64,000 nt of DNA from a virus, in IMG/VR virus record IMGVR_UViG_3300044635_002180, positions 1 to 64,000 of that record. The stretch is one strand, 5' to 3'. The notes below the pieces were generated by a model, which worked only from the letters and a program-made list of their open reading frames with translations, did not search any database and was not told the origin of the DNA. The translations under genes were made by a program, and so were the position numbers. Of this stretch, positions 2,625-63,129 are shown piece after piece (position 1 is the stretch's first letter; every line of letters starts with the position of its first letter).

Positions 2625-3197
2625 TTAACATATAGGATATTTGCAAGGACCCAATCCACATGTTGCACATGTTCGTGGACTTGCAAACCCCGCTGCATTC
2701 AGCAATTGACTACAATTAAGAGTCTGAATCTGAACTGCAATGGGATTATTCATATCTGGCTTCTCTGGTTGAGGTGCCATTGCTTCGGGTTCACGATCGT
2801 TCCAGATGTTGTCCAGGAAGATCTCCAGTGCATCCAATGCTTGTCCCAATCCTGCGCGGTCGTCTAGCAAAATATTGTAATAGATCTTACCATTGTTGCC
2901 AAACGGGAGCTTGATGGGGTTCTCATTGATTGCATCTACATGAATGCCATTGTCTTTCATGTAGTTTTTCATGAAGTCGAATCGTTCAGGAGCAGATGCA
3001 GTCCAAAGAACCACATAGAATCCAACCGCAGCACACTGCTTTACAACATCGATAGCTCTTTCATGCAGAGCGCCCATCTTGTGAAAGTCGTAAACTGTAT
3101 CATCAAAATCCACTGCAACGACGAGCTTGGGATGTTTTTTGTATTCTTTGTGCAACCGCTTGACAATGTTGCTGGTGCTTGAAAAGGGGTCTGTCAT
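2625..3197 (-). CDS. HAD-superfamily phosphatase with a fused C-terminal Cys-rich tail
   Basis: VAVDFDDT (motif I), LWTA (II), K (III), LLDDRAG (IV); tail PRTCATCGLGPC. Confidence 0.8.
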   Translation of the reverse strand: MTDPFSSTSNIVKRLHKEYKKHPKLVVAVDFDDTVYDFHKMGALHERAIDVVKQCAAVGFYVVLWTASAPERFDFMKNYMKDNGIHVDAINENPIKLPFGNNGKIYYNILLDDRAGLGQALDALEIFLDNIWNDREPEAMAPQPEKPDMNNPIAVQIQTLNCSQLLNAAGFASPRTCATCGLGPCKYPIC

Positions 3198-4659: not shown

Positions 4660-4908
4660 TTACGCTTCAACGGTTTTCTTTGCTGGTTTCCAAATTGCAA
4701 TCAGCGCTGAGATACCTAGCACAGCAACAAAGCTGTTGATGTATCCAATGTTGTCTGCAATCTGAAACATCTGGTAACTAGATTCAGTATTATCAAACTG
4801 ACCTAGAGCCAAATACTTTCGAGTAATGGTTTCTGTTTTATTAATAAAGGCAAATGGAATACTCCAAACGCCAAATACAAATAAGGTTTTAAGGATTTTA
4901 CTTTTCAT
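4660..4908 (-). CDS. small two-TM membrane protein
   Basis: Two hydrophobic segments; directly upstream of the SPFH gene. Confidence 0.65.
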   Translation of the reverse strand: MKSKILKTLFVFGVWSIPFAFINKTETITRKYLALGQFDNTESSYQMFQIADNIGYINSFVAVLGISALIAIWKPAKKTVEA

Positions 4909-5267
4909 TTGTTATTCTTTTTGGTTGGTGCTGCTGCTTTTGTGGTAGCACTGAGTTGTGATTCAATTTTATTGTGTTGTTCACGACTACAATGAAGAGT
5001 CCACTCGTGAGTTGTAGGCGGTGTTGCACGTTGTTCGATGAAACCAATAATGGTGCGTTCATCATCAGTGCCTATATGGATACGTTCAACGCTAAATGCT
5101 ACAAAGCCAGCAGCTTTTGCGACATCAAAATCAATTGCAAAATTGACTTTACTTCTTTCAGCATCAATCTCATCGTAATAAGTGGAGACGAAATTTGGTA
5201 GCTTCTGTTGTACCGGTGTTGGTGGCTCTGCAACAGGTGTTGGTTTGCGTTTAAATAGATTGAACAT
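4905..5267 (-). CDS. hypothetical protein
   Basis: ORF with ATGA overlap. Confidence 0.65.
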   Translation of the reverse strand: MFNLFKRKPTPVAEPPTPVQQKLPNFVSTYYDEIDAERSKVNFAIDFDVAKAAGFVAFSVERIHIGTDDERTIIGFIEQRATPPTTHEWTLHCSREQHNKIESQLSATTKAAAPTKKNNK

Positions 5268-5276
5268 AGCTATATA

Positions 5277-6743
5277 TTAAATGTGTTTTGCAAGATTGCT
5301 ACGGATTTCTGCAAGAGTCCAATCTTTCACAAGATTGCCATTCTCGAAGACCTTGACGAATTCGCAGTTGTTAACTTCATCCCAAGTGGCTTGATCCTTG
5401 AGATAGAATTCACCATTGGCATCTTTATAGACTGCGGTCAATCCCTTAGCACTCTTCTTGAACGAAGCACCCTTAGGCGACTTGAAGATCTCCTTATCAA
5501 CGCCATTGATCTTGGCAAAGGTTGCCTTGACTGCGTAACCATCAGTGTCACGCGTTGCATACTGGTAAGTGAAGCTGCCAATGCCAAATACAATGTTGGT
5601 GCTGGCAAAGCCTTTGCGCTTGAGACCTTCACAGATCTGCTGAGCACGTTCCAAAGTGATGCTGTCGCCATAGATCAATCCTACATGTGGATCAAGCTCT
5701 TTGAAGCCTTTGTCATTGACTTTGCCACCAAAGACTTCCCACAGACACTCAATGGAGCCTTTATATTCAGGAGAATCTTTTTCTGCATCTTCATTACCAA
5801 CAACCACCTTGACTGGATCTCCAGTATCGGGACGAAAGACTACCTTGCCATCACGCTGCATGATCTCATTCTTGAGCTCACGAGCAATGTTGGTAAGAGT
5901 ATTCCAATAGTCCCATGTGTCTGATACAATGCTGACAATGCCTTTGGGATACACTTCATTGATCAATCGACGGAAGGTACCAATCTCATCATCAGCACCA
6001 CCTGCGCACATGACGCTGTGTTCAGTTGCAGCAACGCTACCACCAACAAGCTCCTTGGTTGCATCAGCATTGTAGTATTGCTCCAAGAAGTCAATGGCTG
6101 GAATGGTATCAGTGCCTGTGAAGCTGAACAAGTGAGCAGCACCACTCATGCAAGCGGCCTCCAAACCGAACATACCACGGAAGCTGAAATCATGACCCTG
6201 CCATTGAACGAAATCAGTATTGCCAACAGTCTCTGCAGCATATTTAGTCAGCAGCTTCTTATACTGGTGAGCAGTAGTTGCACTGGTGCACATACCCCAA
6301 ACACTGGTAGACAAGATAGTCTCTAAGTAGTTGGTGAACCATCCAAAGCGCTCATCTGTATTCCATAGCACCAAGCTTGGCACCTTGAGAGGATGCTCAC
6401 TACCTTCAGGCAAAGCGAGAATCACAATAGGCAGATGGCCTAATTCATGCAAATCACGAATGTGCTGTTCACCAACATCATTGGGACCAAGATAGTTGTT
6501 GATGCGGTTGCGGAACTTCTCCATCACTTGTTCAATGGGCTTATGGAAGAAATTTTCATCCCACTGCTTGATGAGATATTCCTTGACGAAATACTGTAAT
6601 CCTGCAAAGACAACTTTGTCAGTATTGGTGCGACGAGTGCTTCGAGCGGTAAGATTGCTGAAGATGATTTCAGTATTGTCGGGGTATTGACGACGATGAT
6701 CGACTTTGTAGCCGTCGATTAGTGTAGCTGGGTTTGTAATCAT
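5277..6743 (-). CDS. nadV: nicotinamide phosphoribosyltransferase family protein (Nampt; probable Namat of NARP1)
   Basis: DGYKVDH, HDFSFRG, GTDT, ATEHSVMC, SIVSDTWD, VFRPDTGDP, IYGDSIT, GIGSFTYQ, KKSAKG. Confidence 0.93.
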   Translation of the reverse strand: MITNPATLIDGYKVDHRRQYPDNTEIIFSNLTARSTRRTNTDKVVFAGLQYFVKEYLIKQWDENFFHKPIEQVMEKFRNRINNYLGPNDVGEQHIRDLHELGHLPIVILALPEGSEHPLKVPSLVLWNTDERFGWFTNYLETILSTSVWGMCTSATTAHQYKKLLTKYAAETVGNTDFVQWQGHDFSFRGMFGLEAACMSGAAHLFSFTGTDTIPAIDFLEQYYNADATKELVGGSVAATEHSVMCAGGADDEIGTFRRLINEVYPKGIVSIVSDTWDYWNTLTNIARELKNEIMQRDGKVVFRPDTGDPVKVVVGNEDAEKDSPEYKGSIECLWEVFGGKVNDKGFKELDPHVGLIYGDSITLERAQQICEGLKRKGFASTNIVFGIGSFTYQYATRDTDGYAVKATFAKINGVDKEIFKSPKGASFKKSAKGLTAVYKDANGEFYLKDQATWDEVNNCEFVKVFENGNLVKDWTLAEIRSNLAKHI

Positions 6744-6748
6744 GTTAA

Positions 6749-6777
6749 ATTATAATATGTGTTTAGTTGTTATGCAA
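6749..6777 (-). promoter_or_regulatory. sigma70-type promoter TTGCAT-17-TATAAT, 5 nt before the Nampt ATG
   Basis: Read directly; the -35 lies in the 3' end of the NDT gene. Confidence 0.75.
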
Positions 6778-7281
6778 CGCAAATCGAAGAACTTGATTTA
6801 CTAATTCATCTTTTGAATGAACGATTCTATTAGCAAGTTTTATATCTCTCAATCCTGTTTGATAGAAGACATCATTCTTACGTTTATATTCAGGATCAGT
6901 ACCAATAAAAATCTTGTCATGGTCATGCGTATGAAGCGCACTGCCCAATTCAAATAAGGTAATAGGTGCAAGTGTTTCAGGTGCGAACCAAAACAGAATG
7001 TAGTCGCACTGATGAATGCATTGATACTCCCACGTAATCTGTTCTCTTTCGAGTTCAGGATTCAATGCATCATAGTTGCTCCGTCGAGGATTGAACACGT
7101 TCAAAACGTCAATGATTCGCAAGCTTATAATGCCATGTTGAGTTGCGGGAGCATATGCTAACTCTTTCTGCCAATCCTCAGCGCCTGTAATAGATCCAGC
7201 CATAAAAATACTCCTGGCTGGATCTCTACGAGCGACCGCAAGATTGTATTGAGGTGCTTCGATATACATTCTTTCTTTCAT
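6763..7281 (-). CDS. nucleoside 2-deoxyribosyltransferase-like protein (NDT fold N-glycosidase)
   Basis: IFMAGSI..AEDWQ, VFNPRR, EQITWE, ILFWF, PITLFELG (catalytic Glu position). Confidence 0.85.
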   Translation of the reverse strand: MKERMYIEAPQYNLAVARRDPARSIFMAGSITGAEDWQKELAYAPATQHGIISLRIIDVLNVFNPRRSNYDALNPELEREQITWEYQCIHQCDYILFWFAPETLAPITLFELGSALHTHDHDKIFIGTDPEYKRKNDVFYQTGLRDIKLANRIVHSKDELVNQVLRFALHNN

Positions 7282-7283
7282 AA

Positions 7284-8165
7284 TCAAATTAAGCTAATGA
7301 TTGGTGTAATGTTGAGCATGACACTGCGGTCAGCAAACTCTTTGCTGTTGGTTGTGAATACACCATCAATGCCTGACTCTTTGAGAATTCGAAGTATAGC
7401 AGTGCCCTCGTAATGGGAAACTACCAAGTATACCTTTTCGGCACCCTTTGCCTTGAGCACTTTGGCAAGAGCACAAAACGTACCACCTTTACTGCAAATG
7501 TCATCCACAATGATGCAATGTTTGCCGGTCAAATCATCTGCATACACCGTGGTCTCGATAATCTCACCCGTTGCAACATTGCGCAGCTTGTCAGCACGAA
7601 CAACAGGAACATCTTTGTATCCATCCTTGTAAAGATGTTTAGCAACATTGGCAACTTTTTTGTTGCTGCCTGCATCAGGAGAGACAAGGACAGCACGCTT
7701 CATGAAGTCAGTCGACATGCCGTTAACAATTTCACCATTAAGCCTAGAGAAAACATGAGCCACGAACTCACAATTGTCAACGACTTCTACATTGTTGAGC
7801 AATGCTGGTGTCACATCGCTATGAGGATCAAACACAACAACTCTGTCAAACTTCATAGCGTTGATGAGATCTGCATATACTTTGACGCTTAAAGGTTCTC
7901 CTTCATTACAGACACGGTCTTGACGAGCTGCTGGGAAGTATGGAATCTTGAGACTCATGCTTTTGCAACCAGCACGGCGCAATGCATCGACAATCAAAGC
8001 AAGTTTGATAATTTCAGAATCCTGCATGAATGGCAGAGTAATAGTAACAGATTCCGCCATATGCAATCGTTCTGCATTAAGCTGAACGTGTTGCTCACCT
8101 CCGCCAAAGAAGAAATGCTTGTAGTAAATGTGGTTGTGATCGATGTTAGATTCGATTGTAATCAT
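7284..8165 (-). CDS. prs: ribose-phosphate pyrophosphokinase family protein (probable Adps of NARP1)
   Basis: F.GGE, PYFPAARQDR, DPHS, SPDAG, K.R, IVDDICSKGGT, VSH. Confidence 0.92.
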   Translation of the reverse strand: MITIESNIDHNHIYYKHFFFGGGEQHVQLNAERLHMAESVTITLPFMQDSEIIKLALIVDALRRAGCKSMSLKIPYFPAARQDRVCNEGEPLSVKVYADLINAMKFDRVVVFDPHSDVTPALLNNVEVVDNCEFVAHVFSRLNGEIVNGMSTDFMKRAVLVSPDAGSNKKVANVAKHLYKDGYKDVPVVRADKLRNVATGEIIETTVYADDLTGKHCIIVDDICSKGGTFCALAKVLKAKGAEKVYLVVSHYEGTAILRILKESGIDGVFTTNSKEFADRSVMLNITPIISLI

Positions 8166-8170
8166 GTGTT

Positions 8171-8199
8171 ATAATAAACGATTGTTGTTTGTTAATCAA
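8171..8199 (-). promoter_or_regulatory. sigma70-type promoter TTGATT-17-TATTAT, 5 nt before ATG
   Basis: Read directly. Confidence 0.7.
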
Positions 8200-8563: not shown

Positions 8564-9130
8564 TTAAAACCATTCAATGTGACCATCAAGATAATGGATT
8601 GCAGTTTCTTTTTGTCCCTTCTTAAAGAATCCAGATGGTTCCTTTTTGGAAGGATGTTCATCATATACTTGCGGTTCTTCTGTGCCTTTATCATCCCATG
8701 GCTCATACCATCGATTACCGCAGCATTCACAATCTCGTCCAGATGCAACACCATGAAAGTAAAGACCAATGTCTTCAGCACGACTCATTGCATGCTTAAG
8801 ATCATGTGCTTCAATGATCGCATAATGAGTAATACCAGATCGCTTATCGTAATCAAATGAACCACCAGAATTGTTTTGACCGAATGTATAAAATTTACCT
8901 TTCACTTGCTGTTTGGTTTGGTTGAAGATTTTATTGAATTCCTCTTTCATGGTGCTGAATTTGTTGAGAGGGTGGTCATCAGACCATTCGCCAACGTCTA
9001 CGCTTTGCATATCCATCACATAAGGTGCAATGCAACGGTTGGGATACTTTTGATTTTCGATGATGTCTTTGATATCATCTCCGACTGCATCATGGTCAGT
9101 AATGAGTAGTGTTAATTTGTATGCTTTCAT
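8564..9130 (-). CDS. two-domain hypothetical protein; C-terminal DUF7296-like domain (QNNSGG...DCECCGNRW)
   Basis: Motifs recognised from phage proteins. Confidence 0.65.
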   Translation of the reverse strand: MKAYKLTLLITDHDAVGDDIKDIIENQKYPNRCIAPYVMDMQSVDVGEWSDDHPLNKFSTMKEEFNKIFNQTKQQVKGKFYTFGQNNSGGSFDYDKRSGITHYAIIEAHDLKHAMSRAEDIGLYFHGVASGRDCECCGNRWYEPWDDKGTEEPQVYDEHPSKKEPSGFFKKGQKETAIHYLDGHIEWF

Positions 9131-9139
9131 TTTTACTCT

Positions 9140-10303
9140 TTAATTATATTCTCTTTCCTTTGACTCTGCAACTTCAAAATCATCTTTGGTGAGACTCTGC
9201 AGTACATGATCGCTAAGTTTAAATGCATCCATATTGAGATCCATGTACTTGAATGCATACTTCATTACATCCGTTACACGATAATACTGCTGCAAGTAAA
9301 GTGCAAACTCCTTGCGAGTATCTTTTGGAGCATTGTATACAACTTTGTCAACCTTTGTAACAATTTGACTCACCTTGTTGTCAATCATCCATTTGTAACG
9401 ATCAAACTCAGGCAAAAGTTCTTCTGGAAGAGCTTTGCGAATTTCTTCATCCTCATTTAATTGCACAGCTTCAAGCACACGCTTGAAAGTAAACTGAGCA
9501 ATGATGCGATGCAAACGCATGTAATCTTCAGACTTAAATTTAAAGATGGAGCCATCAGAAAAGTGCACCACAAAGCCTTCAAATTCAGTTCCCTTGGTAG
9601 CATTGAGCCAAGCAACCATTTCTTCTTTTGTATTGAACCTATAGTTGTTTACATAATGAGGCCAAGTAGGAACTGCATTACTACCATAGAAGCATTCACC
9701 GGAATGAATGTTGCGCATACCAATGAGCATCAAGAGGTTTTTATCATACTTGACAACAATGCGACAAATGTCATCAATGATTTCAAACAAATAAGTGTAG
9801 CTTGTATTTAAAACCATCGAGGTCAATGGTTCATCTTTCATAGCATCATCAAATAGTCTCTGACCCACAATACCAATGTCAGAGTTGAGGGAGCCGCGAG
9901 TAGTCAAATGCCACTTACCATGCCAGAAGAAACAAATACCAAGAGAGCCATCAGCCTTTTCAAATACTTTGTCAATGGTTGCACCTTGGGATGGGTAATG
10001 AATATTACCTTCACCATAGTTGAAGAACTTGGAGAAAGGAAGAGCTACAATCTTGTAGTCATTAGTGGCATCAAAGATGATGCCACGGCAGTGCTGCACC
10101 AGAGGATCCCAAGGAACAGAGTTATGCTCGTATTGATAGGTCTTGGAGTAAGTAACAAGCTTGAGACCTTCGCGCTTGCCCTGACCGATGTTGACTACAA
10201 GTTCATTTTTTTCGATGTGATGTTGTAGGGCATTCCATAGCTTCAACCCATCAATTGAATTAGTTTCGTAGTTCCAAAAATGTTGTGCGAGATAGTTACT
10301 CAT
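9140..10303 (-). CDS. rnlA: RNA ligase 1 (T4 RnlA family)
   Basis: CRGIIFD, PFSKFFN, motif I EKADGSL, TRGS, TYLFE, motif IV EGFVV, K.KS..Y; start at MSNYL. Confidence 0.88.
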   Translation of the reverse strand: MSNYLAQHFWNYETNSIDGLKLWNALQHHIEKNELVVNIGQGKREGLKLVTYSKTYQYEHNSVPWDPLVQHCRGIIFDATNDYKIVALPFSKFFNYGEGNIHYPSQGATIDKVFEKADGSLGICFFWHGKWHLTTRGSLNSDIGIVGQRLFDDAMKDEPLTSMVLNTSYTYLFEIIDDICRIVVKYDKNLLMLIGMRNIHSGECFYGSNAVPTWPHYVNNYRFNTKEEMVAWLNATKGTEFEGFVVHFSDGSIFKFKSEDYMRLHRIIAQFTFKRVLEAVQLNEDEEIRKALPEELLPEFDRYKWMIDNKVSQIVTKVDKVVYNAPKDTRKEFALYLQQYYRVTDVMKYAFKYMDLNMDAFKLSDHVLQSLTKDDFEVAESKEREYN

Positions 10304-10589
10304 TGTTGTAATTTCTAAATAATTTAAATGGTACAAGTGTTTCTTCGTGTACGTCCCAATCATCAACCCAATCCCAATTATCAGATGCAATAACAATGGT
10401 ATCATCTTTTGATGTACCATCTGTTCTGTATGGTGCATTATCTAAATGAATCATCAATGTCTCATCATCTGTAATATGAAAATCTTTGCAAATGCACACC
10501 ATGTAAGGTACGGTGTCCGTTGATCTATTTACTGCAACAATTTTGCGAGTGTCTTCAAGTTTTTCAGTGTCATCAATTGTGTGTTGCAT
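10296..10589 (-). CDS. hypothetical protein
   Basis: ORF overlapping the RNA ligase start. Confidence 0.6.
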   Translation of the reverse strand: MQHTIDDTEKLEDTRKIVAVNRSTDTVPYMVCICKDFHITDDETLMIHLDNAPYRTDGTSKDDTIVIASDNWDWVDDWDVHEETLVPFKLFRNYNNE

Positions 10590-10593
10590 ATAA

Positions 10594-10902
10594 TTAAATT
10601 GTATCTTTGCTTTGCATCTTTTTCATCTGCATCTTTGCATACAAGTCTAATATGGTGTGTAGTTCAATGCTACTTCCAGCATACTCTGTTGCAAGAACAA
10701 TGTATAGATTGGCTTTCAATGACCCATCTGGCATGGCCTCAATGATTCGCTTCAGCTCTTCAATGTTAGACACCTGCTGCACCTGCTCAATTGGCTGCGG
10801 CTGAATACTGTGAGATGTTTTGAAATAAGCAGCTGCACATATGCTCATTGCAAATGCAGTGCAAAGAATCACAGAATGCCAGTTATTAGAAAAGATTTTC
10901 AT
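10594..10902 (-). CDS. membrane-anchored hypothetical protein
   Basis: N-terminal hydrophobic helix; TTGATT-17-TATAAT promoter (10909-10937) 6 nt before ATG. Confidence 0.65.
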   Translation of the reverse strand: MKIFSNNWHSVILCTAFAMSICAAAYFKTSHSIQPQPIEQVQQVSNIEELKRIIEAMPDGSLKANLYIVLATEYAGSSIELHTILDLYAKMQMKKMQSKDTI

Positions 10903-10937
10903 GTGAACATTATACAATGGCTTGTTAACCAAATCAA

Positions 10938-11210
10938 CTATTCTTTGTAATCTTCTGCACCTGGCTTCCATTGTTCATAAACAAGTGAAATGCTCATGAG
11001 TTCTCGAACAATCAGTGGAATTACTGGTGCAGTATAAGTTGCAAACGCCATGGCACTTGCAGAATAATCTGCGCTTTCAGGAGTTTCTTTGATGTGCTCT
11101 TGAAGCAGTTCACATCTTTCTTTTAAAGATTGAAGATAGTGCAGTGCATTAGCTGCATGACTATCTCTTGCTCGTAGAAACTTTTCATAATGCTTTTGCT
11201 TAGTTGTCAT
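10938..11210 (-). CDS. hypothetical protein
   Basis: ORF in operon context. Confidence 0.6.
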   Translation of the reverse strand: MTTKQKHYEKFLRARDSHAANALHYLQSLKERCELLQEHIKETPESADYSASAMAFATYTAPVIPLIVRELMSISLVYEQWKPGAEDYKE

Positions 11211-11215
11211 GACTG

Positions 11216-12316
11216 TTAATTTTCATAGTCGCGAATTGCTGTTACAAACGGGAATCGGGGAATATTGTCTGGTGTTAAGTTGAAGTACTTAACTGTAGCT
11301 TGTTTACCAATGAGATCAACTTTTTCTTTGAGAAGTTGTGCACAGTATTCACGAGAGCCTTTGATGTTGCTGTTGAATCTAACACCCTGTTCATTTGCAA
11401 ATGTCATGGCTCCAGCACCTCCAGCACGATTGCCTTCACCTTCAATGACATCAAGAATAATATACTCCTTGTCTTCAAATTCTTTGCGCTTCAAGAGACT
11501 CTTGCTGCGCTTGTTCTCATATGGTTTATCCAGACGAACCATTTGACCTTCATACCCTTCATTGATGTACTTGCCATATAGTTCATCCAAGTAATACCGC
11601 TGCTGCACAAACATAGTTGGAACTTCTTGAATGCACCCCCCAACTCTGTCAATAACATCTTGCACAATGTGATAGAAGCGCTTGCCAAAGGTTTTGCCTG
11701 TATCAGCTGCATCATAAATCCAATACTGAATGCTAGCTGCAGAGTCAGCTAAATCTTGTGCTGTTGGCTTGGTTTTCTTGACTAAAGAACAAATGGCATT
11801 GAAATCATTGCTAAACTTATCACAGTACAATTCACCATCTAAAACCAAATCTGGATTGGATGCAAAGATGCATTCCAGTGCTTGCTCAATGTGTGGCACG
11901 CTTGCAAACTTCTTACCATTGCGGCTCCACAAGCCATCCTTGCGCGCAATGCATCTGATGCCATCTAGCTTAGGTTGTGAGTAAACAGGCAATGTAATCT
12001 TTTGTGCATAGTCTTCATACTTCTTGGCCAGCATAGGCTCGGTGAACAGTGCAATGTCAATGTCTGCAACATCCTCAAAGCAGCCGCTATCTTTCTTTTT
12101 CTTCCATAGAGCCTGTGCATCTTTGAGCGCTTGTTCTGCTGCAGTTGTGGCATTGGCTTTGCCTTCATTTTTGGGCTTGCAATGAGTGAGTTCAGTAGTT
12201 TGCTGCTTGCCATCAATTTGACCAAAGTGAGTGCGATAAGAATCATCTTCGATTTCAATGGTCCATTGCTGAACAGCACCAGTTGAGGTGCGAGAATAGA
12301 GTGTAGGTAATTTCAT
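11216..12316 (-). CDS. ATP-dependent DNA ligase with an N-terminal WGR-like domain
   Basis: PMLA, QPKLDGIRC, SRNGK, LDGELY, EGQMVR, KRS..LLK.K, OB-fold ..PRFP. Confidence 0.92.
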   Translation of the reverse strand: MKLPTLYSRTSTGAVQQWTIEIEDDSYRTHFGQIDGKQQTTELTHCKPKNEGKANATTAAEQALKDAQALWKKKKDSGCFEDVADIDIALFTEPMLAKKYEDYAQKITLPVYSQPKLDGIRCIARKDGLWSRNGKKFASVPHIEQALECIFASNPDLVLDGELYCDKFSNDFNAICSLVKKTKPTAQDLADSAASIQYWIYDAADTGKTFGKRFYHIVQDVIDRVGGCIQEVPTMFVQQRYYLDELYGKYINEGYEGQMVRLDKPYENKRSKSLLKRKEFEDKEYIILDVIEGEGNRAGGAGAMTFANEQGVRFNSNIKGSREYCAQLLKEKVDLIGKQATVKYFNLTPDNIPRFPFVTAIRDYEN

Positions 12317-12317
12317 A

Positions 12318-12635
12318 TTATTCTGCTTGGTAAACGTCATATGCAGTTGCTTCGTCTTCAGTGACTTCTTTGAAGTGTTCAACTTCAATCTCGTCAGGAA
12401 GTTCAATCTCCCAGTCGTAGTCTTTGACGTTCTGAAAAACTGCAGCTTTTGCAGTTTTTTGTGCATTCTTCCAGTTAATTGGTTTATCAGCTGCAACACG
12501 TATATTGACAAATGCAAGTTGCTTGCGACTCACTTCAATCTCGTAGTAGCGATATTGAGGCGCTTCATCTTTGATAGTATCTACTGTTTCATATACTCTG
12601 TCTGGTTCAGTATGTTCTAGTTTGAAGTCTTGCAT
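12318..12635 (-). CDS. hypothetical protein
   Basis: ORF coupled between the NTase and ligase genes. Confidence 0.6.
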   Translation of the reverse strand: MQDFKLEHTEPDRVYETVDTIKDEAPQYRYYEIEVSRKQLAFVNIRVAADKPINWKNAQKTAKAAVFQNVKDYDWEIELPDEIEVEHFKEVTEDEATAYDVYQAE

Positions 12636-60869: not shown

Positions 60870-61313
60870 TTATGGCAAATGCTTTTCAGTGATGATGAGA
60901 AACTCATAACCAATGCTTTGTGCATACTTTTTTGCAGCTTCCCACTTGCTATTGTTGATGAGCCACGTTGCATTCTCATACAAAATGGTTGATTCCTTTT
61001 TGTTGCCATGCTTTGAAGGTGGTTTTGTTTGACATTCTGGCTTTATTTCAACCAAATATTTTTTTATTGCATCACCTTCTTTAATTACAACAACATTGTC
61101 AATGAAATACCTGTGCATTTTGCGATCAATGGGGCTCATGTATGGAACAACAACAGACTCACTACTCCATTTGAGTACATTGGGATTTTTATCACACCAC
61201 CTCATGAATCGCAACTCCATGCCTGATCTATAAAAAGGCATGCCATTGCCAATGTACTTTTGTGCATTAACAGGTTTGTAGAAATTTTGCTTGTATTGTT
61301 GCTTGGCTTTCAT
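60870..61313 (-). CDS. head completion nuclease (T4 gp4-like, TnsA fold)
   Basis: P.N..KY.G, YRS.ME..FM.WCD.N..V..W.SE, PY.SP.D...HRYF.D, EIKP, N..KW.AA. Confidence 0.92.
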   Translation of the reverse strand: MKAKQQYKQNFYKPVNAQKYIGNGMPFYRSGMELRFMRWCDKNPNVLKWSSESVVVPYMSPIDRKMHRYFIDNVVVIKEGDAIKKYLVEIKPECQTKPPSKHGNKKESTILYENATWLINNSKWEAAKKYAQSIGYEFLIITEKHLP

Positions 61314-63087
61314 TGTGTGTATTTATATACTCAAATACCATGTGTCCGCAGTCCCAGATTCTTCTCCAACCCCGCTGCATCATAATCTGCAATTCAGTTA
61401 ATTTAGCATCATAGCCCTGTTTTACAAGTTTATGTTTTTGGAAATTAGATCTGTGCATCACTGTTTTTGTATCAGTGTACCAATAAGCAGCATTTGTCGT
61501 CTTAATATGTTTAAATCCTAATGTGGTGTAAAACGAACCATCTTTGCAGTATCTTAAATCAGCATATGTTGTTACTTTTTCAACATTGTAATTTCTTAAA
61601 AAATGTTTGAACAGTTTAGATGCTCCACCAATTACAATTGTGTTGAGTTTGCAGCAAAATCTTATGAGCTCAAATGTTTTATTTCTTGTTATTTTGCGGT
61701 TACCAAACGTCATCATTGCAACCATTTCTCCGTTATGCATTAAAGCTAGGGCAATCTGCGAATTATCATTGCCTTGAATGTGATTTGCATTTAAAAAATC
61801 TTTTTTTTGCATTTTTGTTGCTATTATTACTTTGCAGTTGCGTGCATATATTCTACTCTGCAATGCATTTAATCTACTTCGCAACATTGACTTAACAATT
61901 TCTTGCTTGTTTACCCATTCATTTTCAAAAATTTGAACTAAGTGTATATTATTTTGCATGCATAGCTTGCGCTTATTCAAATGCTTACATTTATTGTGTT
62001 GCTCCTCGTCAATGTTGTTGGGAAAATTGGAACCAAAGCTATGCCACAACAACCCATGAAATTCAATGCCCACATTTTTTTGTGGTATAAACACATCAAT
62101 TTCTAATTTCTTGCTACTTGTTAAACCTTTGTAAGAATTGACAACTTCTAAACTACAATCTTGCTGCAAAAAGTTCGCTACTTCTATTTCCAGCCTTGAT
62201 GTACCTGTAGCTACATTGTTGCATTTAGCACAAAAAACATCTTTCCAACGAGCATTTGTTAAGCGACGAAGCAGTATTGATCCACAGGCATTACATTTGA
62301 GGTGATACTCCTGTTGCTGATGGCTATTTACATCATTTAAAACAGAAAAATTTTGTTGCTCAACAGCATTTTTTATAATTTTTAATTTTGCTTTGTTTTT
62401 GTGCTGTTGTGAGCTTGAAGCATTATATCCCCTCAAAAAATTACAGTACTTTGCTTTTATGCTTGCATCATAACAACAAACAGCTGGTTGAGTGTTGTGA
62501 TATAGCAAGTAGAAGCGTTCACTCCAATTAATGCTATCAATGTCTTCGTATAAAAGGTGGTGCTGTGTGTGTTGTAGTATGCTGCAGCAGACATCAACAT
62601 TTTCTTTTAATATAGCAGTGTTAATAAACGCATGCAGTCTTCCATAATTTGTCTTTATTAATCTATCCTGTATAAATTCAAAACACTCACCACACTGCTT
62701 CAATATATATTCTTTGTTTTTGTAGATGTTAATGAAGTTTTGTTTGATACTATTTTTGGAAGCTTTTAGTTTTGCTGATAATTTATGTGCGTCAACTGTT
62801 TTTAGTCTTGCCCCATTTTGCTTGCCTGATGCAATTGCAAATCTGTGCTTATTATTTAGCCATGACAGCGGCAGATTTGTTATTGGACAAATGGGTTGTT
62901 GTGTGATGTTGTTGGTGATGCAATATATGCGCGCAGCAATGCAGGCTCTATCATCTAAAAAATTTGTTGCTTTGATTATATCATTATATAGTTGTGATTT
63001 TTTGAACCACCCCTGCCTTATTACAGCAGCATTTAATTTACCACTTTTGTTGTAGAGCTGTGTCTTAATTTCGTCACATATTTGCAT
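61267..63087 (-). CDS. Hef-like homing endonuclease (Vsr/PD-(D/E)xK) with a C-terminal GNAT-like domain
   Basis: S..E.E, EIDVFIP..NVGIEFHGLLWHS, IFENEW, IYAR.C, NHIQG, GGASKL, YAD.R, IWDCG; inserted between sheath and gp4. Confidence 0.8.
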   Translation of the reverse strand: MQICDEIKTQLYNKSGKLNAAVIRQGWFKKSQLYNDIIKATNFLDDRACIAARIYCITNNITQQPICPITNLPLSWLNNKHRFAIASGKQNGARLKTVDAHKLSAKLKASKNSIKQNFINIYKNKEYILKQCGECFEFIQDRLIKTNYGRLHAFINTAILKENVDVCCSILQHTQHHLLYEDIDSINWSERFYLLYHNTQPAVCCYDASIKAKYCNFLRGYNASSSQQHKNKAKLKIIKNAVEQQNFSVLNDVNSHQQQEYHLKCNACGSILLRRLTNARWKDVFCAKCNNVATGTSRLEIEVANFLQQDCSLEVVNSYKGLTSSKKLEIDVFIPQKNVGIEFHGLLWHSFGSNFPNNIDEEQHNKCKHLNKRKLCMQNNIHLVQIFENEWVNKQEIVKSMLRSRLNALQSRIYARNCKVIIATKMQKKDFLNANHIQGNDNSQIALALMHNGEMVAMMTFGNRKITRNKTFELIRFCCKLNTIVIGGASKLFKHFLRNYNVEKVTTYADLRYCKDGSFYTTLGFKHIKTTNAAYWYTDTKTVMHRSNFQKHKLVKQGYDAKLTELQIMMQRGWRRIWDCGHMVFEYINTHNESQATIQAKFLQTC

Positions 63088-63129
63088 ATTACTATTTATC
63101 ACATATTATAAAGAAATCATAACGAAAGC

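Follow-up and report, generated by a model that had tools for sequence, protein, structure and literature searches.

A PF15891 NDT-fold gene between the two NARP1 genes of an uncultured large phage probably encodes a previously undescribed aid to NAD+ recovery

What does a protein with the fold of nucleoside 2'-deoxyribosyltransferases (NDTs) do between the two genes of a phage pathway that rebuilds NAD+ after its destruction by bacterial immune systems? The question is raised by a locus in positions 1-64,000 of the IMG/VR record IMGVR_UViG_3300044635_002180; this stretch of 64,000 nucleotides is referred to as the window. The whole record, which is 116 kb long and about 55% complete, carries baseplate genes and comes from an uncultured large phage. 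Megablast of the locus against cultured phages gave no matches, and the record is without a close cultured relative. The locus consists of three genes on the minus strand: a Prs homologue of the Adps type (the ADP-ribose pyrophosphokinase of NARP1; 7284-8165, 293 aa), a PF15891 protein of the NDT fold and predicted N-glycosidase (6763-7281, 172 aa from its ATG), and a Nampt homologue of the Namat type (the nicotinamide ADP-ribose transferase of NARP1; 5277-6743, 488 aa). In this pathway Adps would convert ADP-ribose (ADPR) and ATP to pyrophosphorylated ADPR (ADPR-PP), and Namat would combine ADPR-PP with nicotinamide to give NAD+. A first-pass annotation made from the sequence had described the same three genes with a tight first junction, and the calls of open reading frames (ORFs) agree with it. 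The NDT-like ATG lies 2 nt past the stop of the Adps gene (junction ...ATT TGA tt ATG AAA...), with a TTG two codons 5' of this ATG also open, and Namat starts 19 nt past the NDT-like stop. The comparisons presented here show that the NDT-like family is tied non-randomly to phage NAD+ pathways of several kinds, often together with a phosphoesterase, and the protein probably assists NAD+ recovery in a role not described before.

As the first-pass annotation had proposed, the outer two genes are of the NARP1 type and not plain Prs and Nampt. The 7284-8165 product has Pfam matches to Pribosyltran_N, Pribosyltran and Pribosyl_synth, matches phrog_619 at 5e-76, and is 36% identical to the Adps of SPbetaL1. 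Its Adps-type motifs are DPHSDVTPALLNN and ADKLRNvaTGeI, and it has in common with SPbetaL1 Adps the DPHSDVTPAL(L/I)NN segment and the xDKxRNxxTGxI hairpin. It has neither DLHxxQxQGFF nor KKR/KRR, the motifs retained by canonical Prs proteins at other loci, and it scores below every NCBIfam Prs equivalog cut-off. The 5277-6743 product matches Pfam NAPRTase and NAMPT_N, and the PHROG assignments are concordant for all three genes. It is 53% identical to the SPbetaL1 Namat and scores 561 bits against the structures of that enzyme (9W5X/9W5W) compared with 241 bits against human NAMPT. In SPbetaL1 Namat, a selectivity clamp of R40, F392 and Y396 binds adenine, and R306 is catalytic (PMC12774641). 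The window protein has R37 and the F and Y of GIGSFTYQY in place of R40, F392 and Y396, and R304 in place of R306; the Nampt genes of other collected phage loci have the canonical GMGGGLLQK instead of the GIGSFTYQY region. The active-site comparison suggested with the annotation places both window enzymes with the SPbetaL1 type and apart from canonical Prs and Nampt. No nicotinamide mononucleotide (NMN) adenylyltransferase (NMNAT) had been noticed in the window, and a PF01467 search of the entire 116-kb record (about 55% complete) was also negative. NUDIX, Macro (PF01661), NADAR and RyR (PF02026) domains gave no match across the same incomplete record. A PF01467 match in G001, the complete relative described below, was considered as an NMNAT and rejected, since it is RfaE-II-like, with 82 bits compared with 20 bits for NadR. 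Because of the Adps-type motifs, the Namat clamp and the lack of NMNAT in the record, the locus is accepted as NARP1: all that sequence can test is in place, namely an Adps-type enzyme, the Namat clamp, and one operon without NMNAT.

The product of the middle gene matches PF15891 (Nuc_deoxyri_tr2) at 1.2e-17 (64.6 bits, cut-off 30). With 37 homologues as input, AlphaFold2 gave a model of mean pLDDT 89. Its best match in fold and in sequence is BDI_0649 of Parabacteroides distasonis (4mcj; Z 16.9, Foldseek 1e-8), and YtoQ, DNPH1/RCL, several NDTs and MilB (Z 10-12) as well as TIR domains (Z 9-10.5) are further structural matches. In the PDB, 4mcj is the sole sequence match, profile search included, and PF05014-type enzymes gave no sequence-level match; the ESM Atlas search returned PF15891 clusters only. 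The window protein and BDI_0649 have the motifs FLAGxI, DWQK, FNPRR, QxxWE and PITLxExG in common, although their identity is about 22% and BDI_0649 is a cellular, uncharacterised protein. NDTs, DNPH1/RCL and MilB have the same fold (Z 10-11) and apparently an acidic residue followed by Gly at the same strand-loop-helix position; however, they have no sequence-level match to the window family, whose conserved set differs (two Trp, NPRR, YxR). Across about 80 viral homologues the invariant or near-invariant residues are F26, G29, I31, W37, Q38, N64-P65-R66-R67, Q81, W84, E85, F97, F99, T103, P106, I107, L109, E111, G113, Y132, R134, D137 and Q141. E111, in PITLFELG, is invariant in these sequences, aligns with PITLLEMG of 4mcj and stands in the model at the start of the helix following strand 4. 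This is presumably the position where enzymes of the NDT superfamily carry their nucleophile, a placement by family knowledge and secondary structure and not by residue-level superposition. Glu111 of the modelled protein is presumed to be catalytic, and the PF15891 subfamily, whose members are mostly viral, is probably an NDT-fold group of Glu-dependent N-glycosidases. The earlier assignment of the middle gene to an NDT fold is supported, and the Glu to which it had pointed is invariant. Three invariant Arg suggest a diphosphate ligand, with more than one phosphate, and the genomic context appears to favour ribo- or NAD-type substrates over 2'-deoxyribosyl transfer. A difference in the pocket between Adps-linked and Prs-linked copies was sought and rejected; the pocket residues, Glu111 included, are identical in all genomic contexts, and the same reaction is therefore expected beside Adps or canonical Prs.

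A scan of viral contigs with the single NDT-like sequence found no matches, and a profile scan of IMG/VR recovered 80 viral loci with a homologue. Neighbours within 5 kb were clustered and recurrent clusters were annotated; metagenomic searches gave more than 250 homologues as well, and the contexts analysed are those of IMG/VR and GTDB loci. The neighbours are Prs/Adps in 26 loci, Nampt/Namat in at least 22, metallophosphoesterase in 17, a small HAD-like family in 14, a fused NMNAT-Nudix in 12, NADAR in 11, HD_4 in 9, NMNAT, a PncA-like isochorismatase and PncB in 7 each, and Nudix in 6, raw counts that near-duplicate contigs inflate. About half of the 80 loci fall into one of four contexts. 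Context A is true NARP1, in which Adps, NDT and Namat follow one another with no intervening genes other than homing endonucleases or NADAR, and includes the window together with L006, L007, L009, L011, L017, L027, L056 and L083 (8 loci). Context B has NMNAT-Nudix, canonical Nampt, canonical Prs, the HAD-like protein, NDT and metallophosphoesterase, and the context with Nampt and NMNAT is the largest group. Context C combines Nudix, NMNAT, PncA-like and PncB genes with NDT and includes the cultured Sinorhizobium phage Phosso. Context D contains NADAR, a Clp_N protein, NDT, HD_4 and canonical Prs. Every type of NAD-linked context includes a consumer of ADPR, either Adps or Nudix. NARP1 and NARP2 together have been reported in about 5% of phages (10.1101/2024.02.11.579819); given this prevalence, and since a 10-kb neighbourhood is a small part of a large genome, the enrichment of NAD genes would be far beyond chance. 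Cultured-phage homologues are all less than 41% identical and, except for Phosso with its NAD cluster, most lie among hypothetical genes. Homing endonuclease genes of the LAGLIDADG, GIY-YIG and HNH types were found between the genes of NARP1 operons (L007:612-1412, L011:3440-4093 and L027:2681-3262), and such operons seem to be frequent landing sites for them.

A tree of profile-trimmed NDT-like sequences places the window in a clade of six copies (SH-aLRT 95), every one within an Adps-Namat operon. Another three copies embedded in NARP1 are placed elsewhere, and the gene has therefore been recruited repeatedly, the association being both old and re-formed. A distance of -1 to +2 nt between the Adps stop and the NDT start recurs in L006, L017, L056 and L083. 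The link to phage NAD+ pathways that the first-pass annotation had drawn is borne out by the half of the 80 loci with NAD or ADPR enzymes within 5 kb. The family is not specific to NARP1: it also occurs, with the same pocket, beside canonical Prs, Nampt and NMNAT-Nudix and beside PncA and PncB. The gene is also rare in NARP1 as a whole. Among 83 IMG/VR loci collected with a Namat profile, Adps is present in 79 and the NDT-like gene in only 3. The complete syntenic relative G001 (224,703 bp, terminal repeats) has 70-81% nucleotide identity and contains no PF15891 gene anywhere in its genome. Between the Adps stop and the Namat ATG, G001 has about 65 nt of spacer, containing TTGACT-17-TATAAT; the window has a gene of 519 nt at this place. 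The NDT-like gene is a clean gene-sized indel. Because only 3 of 83 loci hold the gene and G001 is without it, NARP1 works without the NDT-like gene. A neighbourhood survey for the order prs-NDT-nampt had been proposed earlier as a check: the arrangement and its tight junction recur in relatives, yet they are scarce among Namat-anchored loci and missing from the closest complete one.

Accessory genes of NARP1 have been described in other phages and offer a basis for comparison. The NARP1 loci of SPbetaL1 and Bas63 have the same two enzymes in the same order on a single strand and no NMNAT (10.1101/2024.02.11.579819; PMC12774641; PMC13586617); the window adds an NDT-fold gene between them and a gene for a HAD-like phosphatase 2 kb downstream. 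NARP1-AP of Vibrio phage Gary (Adps-Adpp-Namat) likewise has three genes with the accessory between Adps and Namat, and its Adpp is a Macro phosphatase that turns unusable ADPR-1''-P into ADPR (10.64898/2026.01.28.702374). In contrast, the accessory of the window has an N-glycosidase fold, and the record has the HAD-like phosphatase and no Macro domain. RyDEP of mycobacteriophage DyoEdafos has the fold of RyR domains and cuts the O-glycosidic ribose-ribose bond of the 2' and 3' isomers of cyclic ADPR (2'/3'cADPR) (10.64898/2026.05.28.727677). The logic of RyDEP with NARP1 is the one that the first-pass annotation had proposed, in that a glycosidase beside NARP1 linearises cyclic ADPR for the rebuilding of NAD+; however, there is no RyR domain in the record, and the bonds cut by an enzyme of the NDT type should be N-glycosidic. 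A parallel from outside phages is XopQ, a virulence protein of plant pathogens that has a nucleoside-hydrolase-like fold, which would make it a repurposed nucleosidase-type enzyme. XopQ is reported to convert the immune signal 2'cADPR to linear ADPR (10.64898/2026.06.15.732069). Its fold and its organism are unrelated to those of the window enzyme, and it serves as a parallel only. The literature searched contained no paper linking an NDT-fold enzyme or the HAD family to NARP pathways and nothing useful on PF15891 and YtoQ; the aRES preprint mentions further genes in NARP1 operons.

We infer the catalysis, substrate, direction of flux and anti-defence role of the NDT-like enzyme as follows. 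The enzyme would cut the N-ribosyl bond of an NAD-derived compound bearing an ADP-ribose skeleton, candidate substrates being N-linked cyclic ADPR (cADPR) isomers, His-ADPR and other ADPR-base adducts. Adps would use the freed ADPR in this phage, the combination of Nudix and Prs would do so in others, and the HAD-like phosphatase may trim phosphorylated variants of ADPR. Release of ADPR from an NAD-derived N-glycoside, feeding NAD+ reconstitution, is the leading reading, held tentatively and at somewhat short of an even chance. Products able to serve all NAD-linked contexts could be ADPR, nicotinamide or ribose-5-phosphate. Their users would be Adps (context A) and Nudix (contexts B and C, with Prs next in B) for ADPR, Namat, Nampt or PncA for nicotinamide, and Prs for ribose-5-phosphate. 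ADPR is ranked first because each NAD-linked context has a consumer for it and because Nudix, besides being fused to the NDT-like domain in some proteins, is its most constant neighbour. Two further reasons are that NADAR, which we take to be an ADP-ribosyl-base hydrolase, co-occurs, and that the three invariant Arg would suit a diphosphate ligand. Immune signals in which ADPR is N-linked have been reported, namely cADPR, N7-cADPR and His-ADPR (10.64898/2025.12.03.692087), and no enzyme degrading these N-linked Thoeris signals was found in the literature searched. It is possible, but doubtful, that the PF15891 proteins of phage NAD+ operons linearise such N-linked signals or adducts (cADPR, N7-cADPR, His-ADPR, ADP-ribosylated bases). 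They would then silence Thoeris-type signalling and hand ADPR to Adps or to Nudix and Prs, while HAD or metallophosphoesterase partners strip extra phosphates. The proposal of a glycosidase that feeds NARP1 came with the first-pass annotation and remains the leading hypothesis because Adpp and RyDEP extend NARP1 by making ADPR and because N-linked signals exist; as a concept it has already been published, with another fold, for RyDEP (10.64898/2026.05.28.727677).

Several observations weigh against ADPR release. The gene is absent from G001 and present in only 3 of the 83 loci anchored on Namat. Among the loci anchored on the NDT-like protein, about half have no recognisable NAD gene within 5 kb. 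The identical pocket means that the enzyme is not tailored to ADPR-based as opposed to ribose-5-phosphate-based routes. No member of PF15891 has a known activity, 4mcj being the only solved structure. The 50 best structural matches do not include ADP-ribosyl cyclase/CD38, although it is related in structure to NDTs. The only homologues found that are assigned to cellular genomes come from bacteria of the candidate phyla radiation (CPR) and from DPANN archaea (Patescibacteria, Nanoarchaeota and Woesearchaeota; contigs L090-L101 from metagenome-assembled genomes), and their presence there suggests ordinary salvage rather than counter-defence. In favour of the ADPR reading, many of them lie 1-4 kb from a canonical Nudix-box gene, and some lie near Nampt/PncB-like genes or NMNAT. 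The strict Nudix-box expression used for these cellular loci misses viral Nudix genes that Pfam finds and was applied to the cellular loci only.

Two other reactions would fit the fold. The enzyme could act on nucleotides in general as an N-glycosidase like DNPH1 or PpnN, one that splits (deoxy)nucleoside monophosphates into base and (deoxy)ribose-5-phosphate, either for remodelling of pools or to supply ribose-5-phosphate for phosphoribosyl pyrophosphate, with its position in NARP1 incidental or loosely related. Its fold relatives DNPH1, MilB and LOG perform such chemistry, canonical Prs adjoins it in the Nampt-type and NADAR/HD-type loci, and fusions to Nudix or metallophosphoesterase could yield monophosphates from di- or triphosphates. 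The half of the loci without NAD genes and the dispensability of the indel for NARP1 point in the same direction. Adps, however, does not use ribose-5-phosphate (10.1101/2024.02.11.579819), yet the supported clade of six copies has been kept inside Adps-Namat operons with a tight junction. Clusters of PncA, PncB and NMNAT keep the NDT-like gene without Prs, and the enrichment of NAD genes, if read against the roughly 5% prevalence cited above, would be far above chance for a 10-kb neighbourhood; this general activity is considered unlikely. Nicotinamide would instead be the product if the enzyme were a nucleosidase of NMN or nicotinamide riboside, possibly after dephosphorylation by the HAD-like protein, the base then passing to Namat, Nampt or PncA. 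A single substrate would then be common to the NARP1, Nampt and PncA/PncB contexts, in keeping with pocket residues that are the same in all of them. DNPH1/RCL and MilB are nucleoside-5'-monophosphate N-glycosidases, and a HAD-NDT fusion fits the sequence from NMN to nicotinamide riboside to nicotinamide. Beside Nampt and NMNAT, however, where NMN is the intermediate, the reaction would be futile, and these genes mark the largest group of contexts. Cleavage of NAD+ by defences already gives nicotinamide, the NADAR/HD contexts have no user for it, and the three invariant Arg suggest more than one phosphate, so that a nicotinamide-yielding nucleosidase is judged quite unlikely.

The protein might also bind its ligand and not cleave it, acting as a sponge for an ADPR-type immune signal or as a regulator of Adps with an NDT fold. 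NDT and TIR folds do bind NAD-derived ligands, but the presumed nucleophile Glu111 and the full polar pocket are invariant in about 80 sequences, as is typical of enzymes, and the fusion partners are hydrolases; a pure binding role is highly improbable. Bacterial immunity depends centrally on the depletion of NAD+ and on signalling by ADPR derivatives, and counter-measures of phages are emerging as add-ons to NARP1 (Adpp and RyDEP). The present locus points to a further, unpublished add-on family that occurs beside all three kinds of phage NAD+ pathway with its presumed catalytic signature intact. Should cleavage of N-linked signals prove true, the family would join Adpp and RyDEP as a third class of NARP accessory, specific for N-bonds. 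If the enzyme proved to be a nucleosidase acting on NMN or other nucleoside monophosphates, a domain family without a characterised member would nonetheless gain a function, and a recurrent metabolic module of phages would be explained.

The accessory set extends beyond the NDT-like gene. The first-pass annotation recognised this gene and missed the HAD, metallophosphoesterase and Nudix partners, including a HAD-like gene within the window itself. This gene (2625-3197, minus strand, 190 aa) encodes a capless BT0820/GmhB-like phosphatase-like protein of the HAD superfamily with all four HAD motifs (DFDDT, T66, K104 and DD112-113). It matches phrog_1238 at 9e-24 and, weakly, NF046079 (BT0820 HAD family). 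The best fold match of its model is 2obb (BT_0820), followed by GmhB, the phage sugar-bisphosphate phosphatase AfhF and the phosphatase domain of T4 PNKP; RefSeq phage records label its homologues 'phosphoheptose isomerase'. One homologue is fused to an NDT-like domain (L009:4569-5471), and in context B the HAD-like gene is directly upstream of the NDT-like gene. Homologues are also found inside NARP1 operons without an NDT-like gene, for example in L103, L110, L116, L150, L166 and L169, in crAss-like phage cr126_1 and in Bacillus phage Nemo, and inside NARP1 operons of crAss-like cr111_1 and of Bastille-like Bacillus phages. The HAD-like gene is thus a candidate for a second recurrent accessory of the NARP1 module, undescribed in its own right, and by analogy its product might be a functional counterpart of the Macro phosphatase Adpp. 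A CX5R-type phosphatase is found in L017 and a metallophosphoesterase in L056, two other loci with NARP1 and NDT, and Metallophos_2 (phrog_547) follows the NDT-like gene in 11 loci (e.g., L019:5520-6161). Fusions in long proteins were sought in a collection of 5.8 billion proteins, which yielded an NDT-Metallophos_2 fusion with 112 member sequences (P0124) and an NDT-NUDIX fusion (P0126). Tunturiibacter phage Tunturi_5 (PP885688.1) encodes a protein of 1262 aa (L088:4953-8741) with PF15891 at 16-115 and ART-PolyVal at 207-380. It is annotated as MutT/NUDIX and is probably a polyvalent, injected protein combining an NDT-like domain with an ADP-ribosyltransferase. An unexpected pairing was seen in a eukaryotic transcriptome protein of 336 aa (P0125), in which an RGS domain is fused to PF15891.

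Promoters had been proposed before both the prs-like and the nampt-like gene. Consensus-like sigma-70 sites are present at both, TTGATT-17-TATTAT upstream of Adps (8171-8199, minus strand) and TTGAGA-17-TAGAAT some 80 nt ahead of Namat, within the NDT-like gene at its 3' end (6824-6852, minus strand), and both matches are weak evidence. Such sites are no more frequent in the region than in shuffled sequence (11 observed against 12.9 +/- 3.5), and the matches are therefore given little weight. Directly after Namat is an ORF of 120 aa (4905-5267, minus strand) that has no Pfam or PHROG match and no counterpart in G001 (window 4914-5275 unmatched). Upstream of the operon, genes on the minus strand (8564-12517) encode a DUF7296 protein (8564-9130), a T4 Rnl1-like RNA ligase (9140-10438) and an ATP-dependent DNA ligase (11216-12517), a region with a possible role in early repair or counter-defence. 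Near the far end of the window, a gene for a protein of 611 aa (61267-63102, minus strand) matches homing/HNH endonuclease PHROGs and has a weak match to a Mom-like DNA modification family.

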